The notes beneath the pieces were generated by a model that did no database searches, was not told where the DNA came from, and worked only from the letters and a program-made list of their open reading frames with translations. From assembly GCA_051599415.1 (NCBI GenBank), contig AP039702.1, positions 372,001 through 436,000 on the forward strand: a stretch of DNA of 64,000 bases. The letters run 5' to 3'. The stretch is from Savitreella phatthalungensis. Taxonomy: Eukaryota. Positions 4,169-42,153 of this stretch are shown piece by piece. Made by a program: the position numbers and the translations under genes. Each line of letters begins with the position of its first letter. Positions within the stretch are counted from its first letter, which is position 1.

Positions 4169-4742
4169 CACCCCAGATGGAAAACGCGAAGAGATATGGA
4201 CTGTTTCCTTTTGTTGTCCTTGTCTTGCATGGCTCAAAGAACGTGAGGCTAATCGACGTCACTCACCCAGCACAGGGATGCAAGCCGCAATAATTTCTAC
4301 ACGATCGAGAACATAGACTCATCCATGCATTGATTTGATGGAGATGGATGATGGAAATGCACTTAAAATCAATCGAATGTAAATTCACACACAGCTGTGC
4401 TGCCATTGTGCATTCAGAGCTATATTTTTTGCAGCGCTAATTGAACGACCTAGTTTGCGATTCCCTTTGAGTCCAAATTCCCATATCTACTCGAAATGGA
4501 AAACCCTAATTTCTGACCATTGTACGTCATAAATAGTTCAGCTGCCCTCAGCCTCCGGTACTCTCATCTGGAGCTCTTGGCCATGGTTGCAACAGACTCC
4601 CGGAAAAGTTACTTAGAGAACATGTGATAGTAACATTTCTCCTGCCCACTGCATCGTTCAGCATAGCTCTCCATCAATACTGTCTGTCATAGCGACCGGC
4701 GCTACGAGCCAAAGAGGATGAGAGAATAGAAAACCTGATAAC

Positions 4743-29115: not shown

Positions 29116-32100
29116 ATGGTGGCCACAGGCGCGGTAGTCAGCGCAGCTATCACATACTTAGGATGTCTGTCCGACAATTGGCCGAATTCGAGGGTCATGT
29201 CAGGTATGTGGACAAGCTCTGACTCACTCTCGATTAGCTCATGCACTTCCTTCTGTGGCGACGCGGGCTTCAAGTATGCAGGATGTGAATACGGCAGGGA
29301 GATCTGGTGCAGTAACACGCGACCTGTCATTTCATCTTCGACCAGCGGCTGCGACATGCCCTGCTCAGGAGACTCATCTGCGAAATGCGGTGGCAGCAAC
29401 CGGTTGAGTGTGTATGAACTCAATTCGCCGGCGGTCGCATCGACTGCTTACGCTCTCGGGTGTTACGCTGACAACCCCAATTGGCGTGCTATGCAAACCG
29501 TTGTCAAAGGCTTTGAGATGACGCCAGAGGTGTGCCAGTTGTATTGTGCCTCTCGCGGCTACTCCATTTTCGGACTTCAGTTCTCGACCGAATGCTGGTG
29601 CTCATCATCAGTACCGTCTCAAGGCAAGTCAAACAGCTGCGACATGCAGTGCTCTGGCTCGTCGGCAATATGCGGCGGTAAAAATGCTTTGTCGGTTTAC
29701 ACGACAGACTCAGCGCTTTATCGCAGCACAGTTGGATCAGTGCCCGGCGCTGACAAAAATTCCGTCTCAGCTTCAAACAGCGCCTCTTTGATGAGCTCGC
29801 AATCAGTTTTGCCAACTTCCATCTCACCTCCATACGCAAATGAGACCATCGCAGTCGTTTCGACTGAGTCTTCACTCTCTCAGTCGAGCGTCAGCGTATT
29901 CGATGCAAAGCCCACACCTTCTCTTTCCAGTGTGCTGTCCTCTGCCAGCTCTCCACCGAACGAAGTAGAATCGATGCGCTCGAGCTCATCCGGTCTGTCA
30001 ATGTCTACCCTGGTGACCTCTAGTGCATCACCAACGACTAGTGTGGCTAGCTCGACCTCGAGTAGCGACGTCTATCAAGGGTGCTTTCTCGATTACTATC
30101 CGCAAGGTCGAGCAATGTCAGGAGCATCAACCCAGAGCGACTCTATGACAAACGACATGTGTCGGTCTTTCTGCATCACCCGAGGTTTTGCTTATGCAGC
30201 CACAGAATACGGGAGAGAATGTTACTGCTCGGCCCTCGCTCCAACTACGACGGCAAGCAATTGCGACATGAAGTGCGCCGGTGGTAGCGGGATCTGCGGC
30301 GGCTCGAATGCCCTTGCGGTGTACAAATACCCGGTAATGCCGCAAGCCTCTGCGATGCCGGTGGTCTTACCCTCCAATTGGTCCGCAGTAGGATGTCGTT
30401 CGGATGCCACCAATTGGCGCGTTCTCACAACGTACAGTTACAAGGATGATCAGATGACTATTCAGAAATGTCTCTCGACATGCCAAGATCTCGGTTTGAA
30501 TCTGGCAGGTCTGGAGTACAGCACCGAATGTTACTGTGGCATGGATCAGCTCGTCTGGGATCAACAATCCTCGAGCTGCACGATGCCGTGCGGAGGTGAT
30601 ATCTCCACGACCTGCGGAGGACCAAATGCCCTCCAAGTCTACAAATACGCTGGGCCGGCAGCGTCCCGCGCGATTTTGCAATCGACAACAGCAAGTGGTG
30701 CCAAGTACAGCTTCGCAGGCTGTTGGTCAGACGCGTGGCCGAGTAGTAGAGTACTGAAAGGAGCGCAAGCACCTTCTGGCAACGGTTCTCCTGGATTGTG
30801 CACCTCCTACTGTCACTCGCGCGGATTTCCAATCGCTGGAATCGAAAACGGCGACCAGTGCTTTTGTGACACATCAATGCTGGGCGCGTCACGTTTCCGC
30901 GATGACGCTTGCAATGCTCCATGTGCACTGTCTGCCACAGCATTGTGCGGCGCTGCGAACAAGCTTTCTGTCTATGCCACTGAAGGGGCTAATATTGTCG
31001 CTGCCGACGCAAAACCGAAAGCGCCACAGTTGCGTTACAAAGGCCATGATATCAGCTCGCTCCTCATGCTGGAAAAAGGGTTGAGTGCCGCCTACGAACC
31101 ACCGAATTGGAAGTGGAGCCAGGAAAGCTGGGATAACCCCCCCAAGCTAGAGCAGCTTCTTGCAGACGCGGGCAGTAACACAATTAGACAGCGTTTGTGG
31201 ACTTCACCAAACGCGTCAGCTCCCGAGGGCACTACTTACGGACTGGCATACAACATTGAGCTGGGACGTCGCGTGCGACAAAGCGGCCAACTCATCTTCC
31301 TCGACATATTCTACTCTGATGATTGGGCAGACCCTTTCAAACAAGTGACTCCAAGCCTCTGGGCAGGTCTATCTCTGCCTGACCTCTGTGTCCAGGTCGA
31401 GCGCTACACACGCGACGTTCTGAATGCATTTGTGGACGCAGATGCACCTATCGAACTACTTTCCCTTGGAAACGAGATCACAAAAGGCTTTATGTGGCCA
31501 CTCGGTCGCAGCGTCGACGGCATGAGTCAACTGCTAGCAGCTGCAGTCCGTGGTGTCAAGTCTTCGCGGATGTCACCCCTGCCAAAGCTGCTGTTGCATC
31601 GGGATGATGGTACTAACAAGAATGGCGTGCTCAGCTTCCTCAAAGGCATCTTCGGCAGCGGATACGTCTCTCCAACAGATTTCTATGGCTTTGCAAGTAC
31701 GACATATCCATTCTACACTTCTTCCGCGACACAAGAAGCAGCGCTTGACACATGGACTGCTGTCGCGGAGACTTGGGGCTTAGCAACCATAGTCACTGAG
31801 ACTCAGTGGCCTGTGTCTTGTGCTCAGGCCTTCACGTCATGGCAGAGTTGGTCATCGGACTTGAATTTCGATGCTGGTGACCCGTACGCCATGGGTTTCG
31901 ACATTCCATCACAGCGCAGATGGACCTACATGCTGGCAAACACTTTGAATCGTGTGCCAGGAGGCAAAGGCCAAGGCTTGTTCTACTGGGAGCCCGGGTT
32001 CCTGAACAATACAGCCGCCGGCACGACCTGCGATAGCATCTTGCTTGCTCGACCTCAAGATGTGTGGTGGAATTCAGATCAGAGGAGTTCCAGTGGTTAC

Positions 32101-32151
32101 CGCCCAACAATGACTCTGGCAGACTCTGTCAATACCTGGAAGGAGATCTGA
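29116..32151 (+). CDS. Multi-WSC-domain protein with C-terminal GH53 (endo-beta-1,4-galactanase-like) domain
   Basis: Five Cys-rich WSC repeats (YLGC...CGGSNRLSVY and similar) and a Ser-rich linker after repeat 2. GH53 motifs from ~31030: KGHDISS, NTIRQRLW, YSDDWADP.KQ..P..W, SLGNEI (acid/base), VTETQWP (nucleophile), GLFYWEP. Confidence 0.88.
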   Translation: MVATGAVVSAAITYLGCLSDNWPNSRVMSGMWTSSDSLSISSCTSFCGDAGFKYAGCEYGREIWCSNTRPVISSSTSGCDMPCSGDSSAKCGGSNRLSVYELNSPAVASTAYALGCYADNPNWRAMQTVVKGFEMTPEVCQLYCASRGYSIFGLQFSTECWCSSSVPSQGKSNSCDMQCSGSSAICGGKNALSVYTTDSALYRSTVGSVPGADKNSVSASNSASLMSSQSVLPTSISPPYANETIAVVSTESSLSQSSVSVFDAKPTPSLSSVLSSASSPPNEVESMRSSSSGLSMSTLVTSSASPTTSVASSTSSSDVYQGCFLDYYPQGRAMSGASTQSDSMTNDMCRSFCITRGFAYAATEYGRECYCSALAPTTTASNCDMKCAGGSGICGGSNALAVYKYPVMPQASAMPVVLPSNWSAVGCRSDATNWRVLTTYSYKDDQMTIQKCLSTCQDLGLNLAGLEYSTECYCGMDQLVWDQQSSSCTMPCGGDISTTCGGPNALQVYKYAGPAASRAILQSTTASGAKYSFAGCWSDAWPSSRVLKGAQAPSGNGSPGLCTSYCHSRGFPIAGIENGDQCFCDTSMLGASRFRDDACNAPCALSATALCGAANKLSVYATEGANIVAADAKPKAPQLRYKGHDISSLLMLEKGLSAAYEPPNWKWSQESWDNPPKLEQLLADAGSNTIRQRLWTSPNASAPEGTTYGLAYNIELGRRVRQSGQLIFLDIFYSDDWADPFKQVTPSLWAGLSLPDLCVQVERYTRDVLNAFVDADAPIELLSLGNEITKGFMWPLGRSVDGMSQLLAAAVRGVKSSRMSPLPKLLLHRDDGTNKNGVLSFLKGIFGSGYVSPTDFYGFASTTYPFYTSSATQEAALDTWTAVAETWGLATIVTETQWPVSCAQAFTSWQSWSSDLNFDAGDPYAMGFDIPSQRRWTYMLANTLNRVPGGKGQGLFYWEPGFLNNTAAGTTCDSILLARPQDVWWNSDQRSSSGYRPTMTLADSVNTWKEI

Positions 32152-35299: not shown

Positions 35300-35517
35300 A
35301 TGCTCGGCCTCTTGTCCAGGACAGCGCTATTTGCGCCGCAGCTGACGAGGGGAATGAAGGTACGAACGTCGGTCAAGAGACTTTGTCCGAAATGTGCTAC
35401 AGTGAGAAGGAAAGGCAGGGTATGTCAACCTCGGCAGAAGAGAGACGGTTGACTGACGCGCAATAGGTTTACATCATATGCAAGGACAATCCGAAGCATA
35501 AGCAGCGGCAGGGATGA
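35300..35517 (+). CDS. RTC6: Mitochondrial ribosomal protein bL36m, two exons (35300-35419, 35467-35517)
   Basis: Spliced product MLGLLSRTALFAPQLTRG-MKVRTSVKRLCPKCATVRRKGR|VYIICKDNPKHKQRQG* (56 aa). The 47-nt intron has a GTATGT donor, CTGAC branch site (35453) and TAG acceptor. Confidence 0.95.
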
Positions 35518-39987: not shown

Positions 39988-41166
39988 CTAATTCGCAAAC
40001 CTTCGATGTCGCAGAAATGCGTCGCTCAAGAAGCCGTGACCAGAGTCTGTGACACGGAACATCTCGAGGCCAATGCCGCCAGGTCTGTATCTCAACCTCC
40101 AGGTGCCCTCATGGCAGTTGTCCTTCTTGATGGATGCTATCACCCACTTGAGAGCGTCTCCTGCAAAGTTGATGCAGACGTTACCGTCCCAATGGGTGAG
40201 GCCGGGGATCTTGAGCGTCTCGAATTCCTCCTCACCCACTAAGATGCCATCCCGCGATCTAAACCCGACGCGAATGCGAGGCACCCCAAGAAGAAAGCTC
40301 TGTGCCCAAAACTTGAGCAATTTCGACTCTTCAAAAACGCTACGGTCCCGCGGCGAGGCGATAACCTTCGATGTCTTGAGTTCCAAGTAGCGACCAAGCG
40401 GATCCTCGCTGGCGTACATCGTGGCTGACGGCGGTCGAATGACGAACTCATCATCAGAGGTTGCGACAATTGGTGGTTGCGGATCTGGCTTGTAGTCGAT
40501 GGCACAATCAACTTCTCCACCGAGTACCAGTGAGACAGGGCCGAGGCGAGTTCGCACAACAGATATATATTGCACATTGGTGTTCACCTCTCGTGCAGCG
40601 CGACTCTCGATCTCGCCACGCGTCGTGTGAGGCCAGGTCCGCGGAATCGTCGACAGACCTTCGTATCTGTATCCCCAGTACATCGCGCGTTGCTGAATAG
40701 GATCTGCTTCCCGTGATGCTTTCTTCAGGCGTGTCTGATCATCAACGTGATCCTCCAAATAAAGCGTACCTTCTAGAAGCGTCGCATTGAGCTCAAAGCC
40801 ATCCTGGAATTTGGACTGGCGATGTAGCTCATAAGGCAGGGTCAGGAGACGCGTAACGATGCCGCGCCAGCAGACCACGTCGACGTCTCGCGTCCTTCGA
40901 TCTTCCGGATGCTCTTCTTCGTACCGCACAATTGCTGCAAGCAAACCATCGAGATGCTCAACCACTGACTCATCGCGCCGGATATATCGATCAGTATACC
41001 CAACTGAAAGGTCAGCATCTTTGTCGGCGGGCCAAAAGAAAGACAGCGAGCGATCGTCGTGATGCAATAGGCGTTGATCGTCGTAGGAGAAGCTACAAAG
41101 TTCGACTGGCTTGCGGAACAGCGAGGCCTTCGTATATCGATCAAGCGGCTGGACCGGAAAGCTCAT
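39988..41166 (-). CDS. RAI1: Decapping/deNADding nuclease Rai1/DXO (Din1)
   Basis: ELCSFSYD, VCWRG, MYWGYRYE, GGEVDC, YLELKTS, KLLKFWAQSFLLGVPRIRVGFR. Confidence 0.93.
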   Translation of the reverse strand: MSFPVQPLDRYTKASLFRKPVELCSFSYDDQRLLHHDDRSLSFFWPADKDADLSVGYTDRYIRRDESVVEHLDGLLAAIVRYEEEHPEDRRTRDVDVVCWRGIVTRLLTLPYELHRQSKFQDGFELNATLLEGTLYLEDHVDDQTRLKKASREADPIQQRAMYWGYRYEGLSTIPRTWPHTTRGEIESRAAREVNTNVQYISVVRTRLGPVSLVLGGEVDCAIDYKPDPQPPIVATSDDEFVIRPPSATMYASEDPLGRYLELKTSKVIASPRDRSVFEESKLLKFWAQSFLLGVPRIRVGFRSRDGILVGEEEFETLKIPGLTHWDGNVCINFAGDALKWVIASIKKDNCHEGTWRLRYRPGGIGLEMFRVTDSGHGFLSDAFLRHRRFAN

Positions 41167-41244
41167 ATGAGCATACAGTCTGGCTCATCTTAAACCCCAA
41201 GGCGTTTTTCATAGTGATATAGTTTGATCACCTCATTTAATTTG

Positions 41245-41250
41245 TATATA
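41245..41250 (+). promoter_or_regulatory. TATA element of the U6 (Pol III) gene
   Basis: TATATA about 29 nt upstream of the inferred U6 5' G at 41274. Confidence 0.55.
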
Positions 41251-41273
41251 TTGGTAAAAAAATTTTCCGATTT

Positions 41274-41392
41274 GCCGCTCGGCTTTCGTGGTCGAGCTGG
41301 CATTTGGTCAATTGAAACAAAACAGAGAAGATTAGCATGGTCCCAGCACATGGATGACACTGCGAAGCAAAAGACTAAACCCGTTTTTTTTT
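41274..41392 (+). ncRNA. SNR6: U6 spliceosomal snRNA (intronless)
   Basis: 5' stem-loop (GCTCGGC/GTCGAGC), A-box-like TGGTCAATTG, ACAGAGA box (41322-41328), GATTAGC with the AGC triad, ISL ATGGTCCCAGCACATGGATGACAC, and a 9-T Pol III terminator at 41384-41392. The 5' end is inferred. Confidence 0.95.
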
Positions 41393-41655
41393 GTTTCCCT
41401 CTCTGTTCACCTTGATGGCCGTCCTGATGAACGGGCAGCCGTTAGACATCGAACCGGCGTCGTCATGATCCTCATTCAGGGCACGTTCGTAGACGTCACC
41501 ACTTTCTGGAGATCTGAGTCACATTGCACACACGTTCTTCTTGGATGCGCTGCTATTTACGCGTGTTCGAATTTTGCATGAGACTCGAAATCTGAACTTT
41601 CAAATTTCTCTGATGAAATTACGCTTGATCACGGGGATCTTGGACTCACACTACT

Positions 41656-42153
41656 TTAGTGAGACTTGGCCTCACGCTTTAGGGCCTCGCTAGGCGTACT
41701 CGCCTTCGTGTACTTGAGCGTAACGGGACGAATGACCTTCTGATAGACCAGGACTGCGCCCTCGAATTGCGGCAGGACTAGCCAGAGCAGGAAGACCGTC
41801 TTAATTAGAAAATAGAAAGGCATCCAGTAGAGGATAGTGTTAGACCAGTATTCGACAATCGTCAAAAGTCCGTACACTACCCAGTACGTCAGCATCTTGG
41901 TATCGTCCGCACCTCCTGCGGTTTCGATAGCCCGCAGAGAGTAGTAAGTCGGCAAAGCGACGCCTGCAAGATTTGAGAGGAGCTGACCACCCCAGTTCAT
42001 GAAGATGAAGAAGATGTACAAAAGTCCAACTCCCAGAATTGCGTATACCTTGGGCACACCAGATCGTTGCTCGAGGCGCTGCAATTGCGGAAACTTGGAC
42101 AGCTCCTTATCGAGATTCGAGACGTGAGCCTGGAATTTGTCCTGGAACGACAT
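41656..42153 (-). CDS. YOP1: ER membrane-shaping protein Yop1 (DP1/REEP family)
   Basis: LDKELSKFPQLQRLEQRSGVPKVY, SLRAIET...DDTKMLTYWVVYG, WMPFYFLIK..FLLWL.LPQFEGA. Confidence 0.95.
   Translation of the reverse strand: MSFQDKFQAHVSNLDKELSKFPQLQRLEQRSGVPKVYAILGVGLLYIFFIFMNWGGQLLSNLAGVALPTYYSLRAIETAGGADDTKMLTYWVVYGLLTIVEYWSNTILYWMPFYFLIKTVFLLWLVLPQFEGAVLVYQKVIRPVTLKYTKASTPSEALKREAKSH

Follow-up and report, generated by a model that had tools for sequence, protein, structure and literature searches.

Savitreella phatthalungensis, a Taphrinomycete yeast reportedly allied to Protomyces and Taphrina (PMC8877625), carries a U6 snRNA gene in which an A replaces the U that normally precedes the ACAGAGA box. 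We think it likely that this is the working U6, that the resident METTL16 still methylates the target adenosine at 41324, fully or less efficiently, and that a majority of +4A donors has been kept.

The U6 gene and its variant bases

The gene occupies 41274..41392 on the forward strand of the window, the whole stretch of 64,000 nucleotides that was analysed, which is part of contig C14 in a 12.7-Mb, 27-contig genome. It matches the Rfam U6 family RF00026 at 41282-41388 (+, 66.6 bits, cut-off 44, E 1.2e-14) over the whole model (positions 1-105), the sole Rfam match within the window. The gene has no intron. The genome search returned this single copy, with 48 of the 665 candidates scored. A TATA-like element (TATATAT, 41245..41251, +) about 29 bases 5' of the probable start could serve as the Pol III promoter element, yeast U6 promoters being described as carrying an upstream TATA (PMC5855946), and a run of nine T (41384..41392, +) provides the Pol III terminator; no exact B-block consensus was found downstream of the gene. 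Its neighbours are Rai1 (39988-41166, -), for which the best named foreign protein match is in Protomyces (46%), and a TB2/DP1-family gene (41656-42153, -). The Rai1 start lies about 110 bases from U6 on the opposite strand, placing the TATA element between divergent genes of different polymerases. Elsewhere in the window, the 1011-aa product of 29116-32151 (+) combines five WSC domains with a GH53 glycosyl hydrolase domain in one chain.

With RF00026 the gene shares the ACAGAGA box, the AGC triad, the internal stem-loop, U4 stems I and II and the T-run, but it departs from the family in U40A, C60U, a U64-A70 swap and a 12-bp 5' hairpin (human U6 numbering, assigned from A43, the equivalent of which, the METTL16 target adenosine, is 41324). 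The ACAGAGA box (41322..41328, +) is intact in both the sequence and the RF00026 alignment, and the A that replaces the consensus U before it stands at 41321 (+). The resulting nonamer, AACAGAGAA, is identical to the canonical METTL16 substrate UACAGAGAA at 8 of 9 positions and thus differs from the canonical motif; judged from the sequence, this mismatch would count against a canonical METTL16 substrate, not against methylation as such. The U4/U6 stem I strand with the AGC triad (41330..41337, +; paired by hand) is unchanged. The internal stem-loop, which is also the U4-U6 stem II strand (41338..41359, +), reads GGTCCCA-GCACA-TGGATGAC and carries C60U (T at 41341, giving a U.G wobble), U64A (A at 41345), G67A (41348) and A70U (T at 41351), the U64-A70 pair being swapped to A64-U70. 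Folded alone, it does no better than shuffled sequences (z 0.66; z -1.04 for the whole U6 RNA), so that the evidence for its structure is homology and not folding energy. The 12-bp 5' stem-loop (41273..41302, +) has a folding energy of -18.7 kcal/mol (z -5.04), and none of 200 shuffles was equally stable. The preliminary description of this DNA had read an intronless U6 with an A before the box, a double swap and a wobble in the internal stem-loop and an extended 5' stem-loop; all of these readings stand, and the model search and the copy count agree with the U6 assignment.

How rare is the variant? Of 20 unselected U6 loci, 19 have U at position 40 and one has A; these loci come from bacterial MAG assemblies, where they presumably represent eukaryotic contamination, and several are multiple copies. 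Scanning metagenomes for a base other than U at this position turned up 49 loci (C in 27, A in 19 and G in 3, counted by eye and without a denominator), many of them degenerate. Twelve were picked as intact-looking and scored with Rfam; 11 pass, including seven of seven of the A type. These full-scoring A-type loci (L119, L121, L127, L138, L139, L145 and L115) belong to metagenome eukaryotes, C being commoner still (27/49). Since A-type U6 genes pass Rfam elsewhere, AACAGAGA is uncommon, not unique. ACAGA has been reported as invariant across 240 species, a figure that concerns ACAGA and not the preceding base (PMC10581693). The A64-U70 swap is absent from all 69 U6-like loci with which the gene was aligned, but these top pairs do show compensated changes of other kinds in L141, L144, L146, L147 and L160, and C60U recurs in five of the 20 unselected loci (four from one assembly). 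A fungal-type U6 pattern had no match in prokaryote assemblies, nor a U6 core pattern in viral contigs.

We consider it quite improbable that assembly introduced the A at 41321 by mistake, with a T lost within an A-rich run and the real motif being the ordinary UACAGAGAA. The base does lie within AAACAAAAC, and none of the four public runs compared, out of nine listed, covers it (one gave no match at all, one has a gap at 41218-41565 and in another a contig begins at 41324), but the difference from the Rfam model is a substitution and not an indel, the same variant is present in other U6 genes, and both source-sample runs, which are not independent, contain a fraction of 1.00 of the 224 sampled words. 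Such an error would in any case leave the stem-loop changes unaffected, and those are confirmed by U4. One public-run contig over 41324-41359 was set aside as the U6 of another organism (three differences and another tail).

Pairing with U4 and U2

A single U4 gene was found in the genome (72.8 bits; 5' start AUCUAUGUGCUCGGAU). Paired by hand, U4 nt 1-16 form 15 of the 16 pairs of U4/U6 stem II, and the U6 changes at 60, 64, 67 and 70 face U4 differences at 15, 11, 8 and 5, complementary in four cases out of four when both RNAs are compared with their Rfam consensuses. U4/U6 stem I forms 8/8 pairs with UGCUAGUU of U4, two of them G.U. At U4 nt 12, a C produces a C-C mismatch in stem II where the consensus has G-C. 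The U2 gene was also recovered (105.6 bits), and the ten bases of the U2/U6 helix II region (41365..41374, +) are the perfect complement of U2 nt 7-16 (10/10, paired by hand).

Because U4 matches all four stem-loop differences, 41274-41392 is very probably the functional U6 of the organism; a pseudogene would escape such tracking. This bears out the earlier argument that compensated changes point to a functional gene, which now draws on the single U6 copy found and on the matching changes in U4. The stem-loop changes are probably structure-neutral drift, fixed under the double constraint of the U6 stem-loop itself and of stem II with U4. That this gene is silent or a pseudogene, with a canonical and perhaps intron-split U6 elsewhere, seems to us barely credible: only 48 of the 665 U6 candidates were scored and intron-split U6 genes are reported to be missed by such searches (PMC10581693), but the single U4 found fits the variant and would fail to pair with a canonical U6 at U4 A5, U11 and A15.

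A U5 gene within the ribosomal DNA

The search for spliceosomal RNAs placed U5 outside the window. Scoring 48 of 365 candidates gave 12 matches, every one of them on contig C27, about 7557 bases apart and on the same strand as 25S (C27:4550-4663 and 11 further copies to 87813). U5 is present in all 12 assembled rDNA repeats and is the sole U5 detected in the genome; its loop-1 motif occurs 12 times and nowhere else in the assembly. Each unit is ordered SSU, 5.8S, LSU (ending at 4439), U5 (4550-4663) and spacer, with no 5S match in the unit, and the last unit also has its U5, followed by ordinary genes. U5 starts 110 bases 3' of the 25S end, directly after a 28-bp hairpin, one of two in the LSU-U5 gap (z -6.22 for the stretch), and this hairpin resembles the RNase III site of a 3' external spacer. 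From the U5 3' end follow twelve same-strand GTMMGGGTGG repeats (1.8 expected; 0 of 200 shuffles), which resemble Reb1-type polymerase I terminators. No TATA box was found in the 110 bases upstream of U5; U2 and U6 have TATA boxes near -30. In all three of these snRNAs, U4, U5 and U2, the U-run of the Sm-binding site contains a C (U4 and U5 read AAUCUUUGG, U2 reads AAUUCUUGG; the Rfam models have AAUUUUUGG), and because it shares its Sm site with U4, the rDNA U5 can be argued to be functional.

We give an even chance to the proposal that RNA polymerase I transcribes U5 within the pre-rRNA, from which RNase III releases it. Sm-class snRNAs come as a rule from capped polymerase II transcripts. 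If the proposal is true, a U5 made from a polymerase I transcript would contradict this rule and a spliceosomal RNA would be tied to ribosome synthesis; among snRNAs, U6 is described as the Pol III exception (PMC5855946). No report of U5 within an rDNA unit was found in a literature search that covered few subscription journals.

METTL16, splice donors and the probable methylation of U6

The preliminary description went further and suggested that this lineage may have lost U6 methylation and shifted to GUAUGU donors; neither proposal is supported by the genome, in which a full-length METTL16 is present and +4A donors exceed +4U donors. The orthologue (L002:928-2420, -, near 186,000 on C14), NPPF included, is marked by a PF05971 match at C14:186157-186891 (150.8 bits, no stops). 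Its gene has one 59-base intron near the start, with a GTATGC donor, and its 483-aa product is identical to a database protein labelled Savitreella phatthalungensis. Of the 76 columns conserved at a level of at least 85% in 93 homologues the protein keeps 63, GxG, NPPF and the arginine patch among them, and it has lost none of the catalytic, SAM-binding or arginine-patch columns. It is nonetheless one of the more divergent enzymes in the alignment of 94 sequences, where seven have more than its 13 mismatches and one ties. Its rare substitutions include a glycine-rich stretch at 44-51. The KA-1 domain escaped a single-sequence search with the C-terminus but was recovered by a profile search, and the predicted model contains both the methyltransferase and KA-1 (pLDDT 83.5) and aligns over both domains with S. 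pombe METTL16 bound to U6 (9u48; TM 0.85, 383 columns). SNRNP27K is encoded as well (83.2 bits), its YRQYMNR aligning with the human chain at Met141, a residue that has been linked to +4A (PMC10581693).

The single clear intron reported in the window was confirmed by the reading frame: it spans 47 bases (35420..35466, +), has a GTATGT donor and joins ...RRKGR to VYIICKDNPKHKQRQG*, in a product presumably resembling ribosomal protein bL36. The genome is intron-poor (the window has 29 long ORFs and one clear intron), and one GTATGT intron says nothing on the genome-wide donor bias. Across the genome, a donor-branch-acceptor pattern gives 966 matches, 374 with +4A and 264 with +4T; these are pattern matches, duplicates included, and cover only GTRnGY donors with RCTRAC branches. 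A decoy in which the donor is displaced by 60 bases, keeping the same words and anchors and possibly containing some long introns, gives 143 for +4A and 153 for +4U. The excess over the decoy is thus 231 +/- 23 for +4A (374-143) and 111 +/- 20 for +4U (264-153), a difference of 120 +/- 31 (Poisson errors, by hand) and a ratio of about 2:1 (A/(A+U) 0.68), in the opposite direction to a shift towards GUAUGU. A reversed-pattern control was rejected as a baseline: its counts are higher than the forward ones (2128 vs 966, 667 vs 374 and 489 vs 264), its A:T ratio (1.36) is near the raw forward one (1.42), and it hardly alters at displaced spacing (644 and 441), where the forward counts fall to 143 and 153; the displaced-spacing decoy was used for this reason. 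A first enrichment test, on 274 kb, had little power and ranked GTAAGT top (5/58, p 6e-4 uncorrected). S. pombe introns are reported as 2539 A4 and 1846 T4, an A/(A+U) of 0.58 (PMC8163875), and donors here are at least as A-rich.

The notion of a lineage that lost METTL16 and U6 methylation and moved to GUAUGU donors like budding yeast therefore appears very improbable. It would account for the +4U donors of both the window intron (GTATGT) and the METTL16 gene intron (GTATGC), and +4U donors do form a substantial class (excess 111), but METTL16 and SNRNP27K are both encoded and the +4A excess is about twice that of +4U (difference 120 +/- 31). With the Saccharomycotina that lost METTL16 and prefer +4U, as described in PMC10581693, this yeast shares an intron-poor genome and some GUAUGU donors, but it differs from them in retaining METTL16 and SNRNP27K Met141 and in having more +4A than +4U. 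With S. pombe, a member of the same subphylum, it shares a METTL16 with fused methyltransferase and KA-1 domains and a +4A majority beside a large +4U class; it differs from S. pombe in its intronless U6, in AACAG instead of UACAG and in KA-1, where Leu and His stand in for E383 and R391, on either side of the altered pair.

How would METTL16 accommodate such a U6? Phe20 is described as stacking on the U of UACAG and Phe46 on the next A (PMC10018337), and F21 and F43 align with them, so both Phe are conserved here. As U40 is described as kept in place by a Phe that this enzyme conserves, methylation may well be retained, and METTL16 would act on the A at 41324 at full or reduced efficiency. 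If U6 is still methylated, splicing would for that reason keep the ordinary +4A-majority donors of m6A-U6 species. The enzyme may also have adjusted to the altered stem-loop. Among the 11 S. pombe residues described as mutated in PMC12371086, seven are kept (N168, F171, R260, R278, R339, R342 and R343) and four differ (K230, K257, R391 and R394). According to the same source, E383 and R391 of the S. pombe KA-1 domain read the U6 pairs G53-A70 and C55-A67 (PMC12371086), and the pair between these two is the one turned U.G here. E383 corresponds to L433, where none of 88 homologues has Leu and 60 have Glu, and R391 to H441, where 2 of 87 have His and 63 have Arg; the nearest relative, P0122, retains both S. 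pombe residues. In the RNA-binding loop, a conserved C-T-G reads L-Q-A (including L211 and Q212). Two other sets of changes were put aside: K257-to-Val (human R279) was not taken as damaging, since fungi differ from one another at this column (Q 32, K 16, S 12, H 10, R 8 and V 0 of 92), and W423R and G426C were left out because they probably reflect a one-residue alignment shift.

The L433 and H441 substitutions hint at co-evolution, and as changes in one species they would fit adjustment or decay alike. That METTL16 co-evolved to methylate the AACAG motif and the altered stem-loop is a tentative proposal, one that we hold possible at well below even chances. We judge it less likely again that U6 is functional but hardly or no longer methylated, U40A blocking METTL16, which would then be decaying or serving another substrate, while +4A persists through strong U5/exon pairing or mere lag. 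Point mutations in UACAG are said in a review to lower methylation in vitro significantly (PMC7927073), the residues that read the stem-loop (E383 and R391) are Leu and His here but unchanged in P0122, the L-Q-A loop departs from C-T-G, and the genome is intron-poor; yet the catalytic, SAM-binding and arginine-patch columns of METTL16 are all kept, +4A is in excess and not depleted, and SNRNP27K keeps Met141. Passages of PMC7229813, PMC6162343, PMC9850920, PMC10018337 and PMC12371086 yielded no U40A methylation assay. Since Zygosaccharomyces and Eremothecium are reported to keep METTL16 with +4U donors (PMC10581693), presence of the gene is no proof of its activity. Conversely, C. merolae is reported to retain +4A without METTL16 through an ACUGA change (PMC8163875), which is absent from this U6. 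We favour continued methylation of 41324 by the resident enzyme.

This is a modest refinement and no new loss event, the variant base not being unique. Savitreella nevertheless offers a naturally occurring, single-copy U6 that departs from the textbook METTL16 motif in the continued presence of the enzyme and of +4A donors, and that would test in vivo the need for the first U of UACAGAGAA as well as the way in which the KA-1 domain reads the stem-loop.
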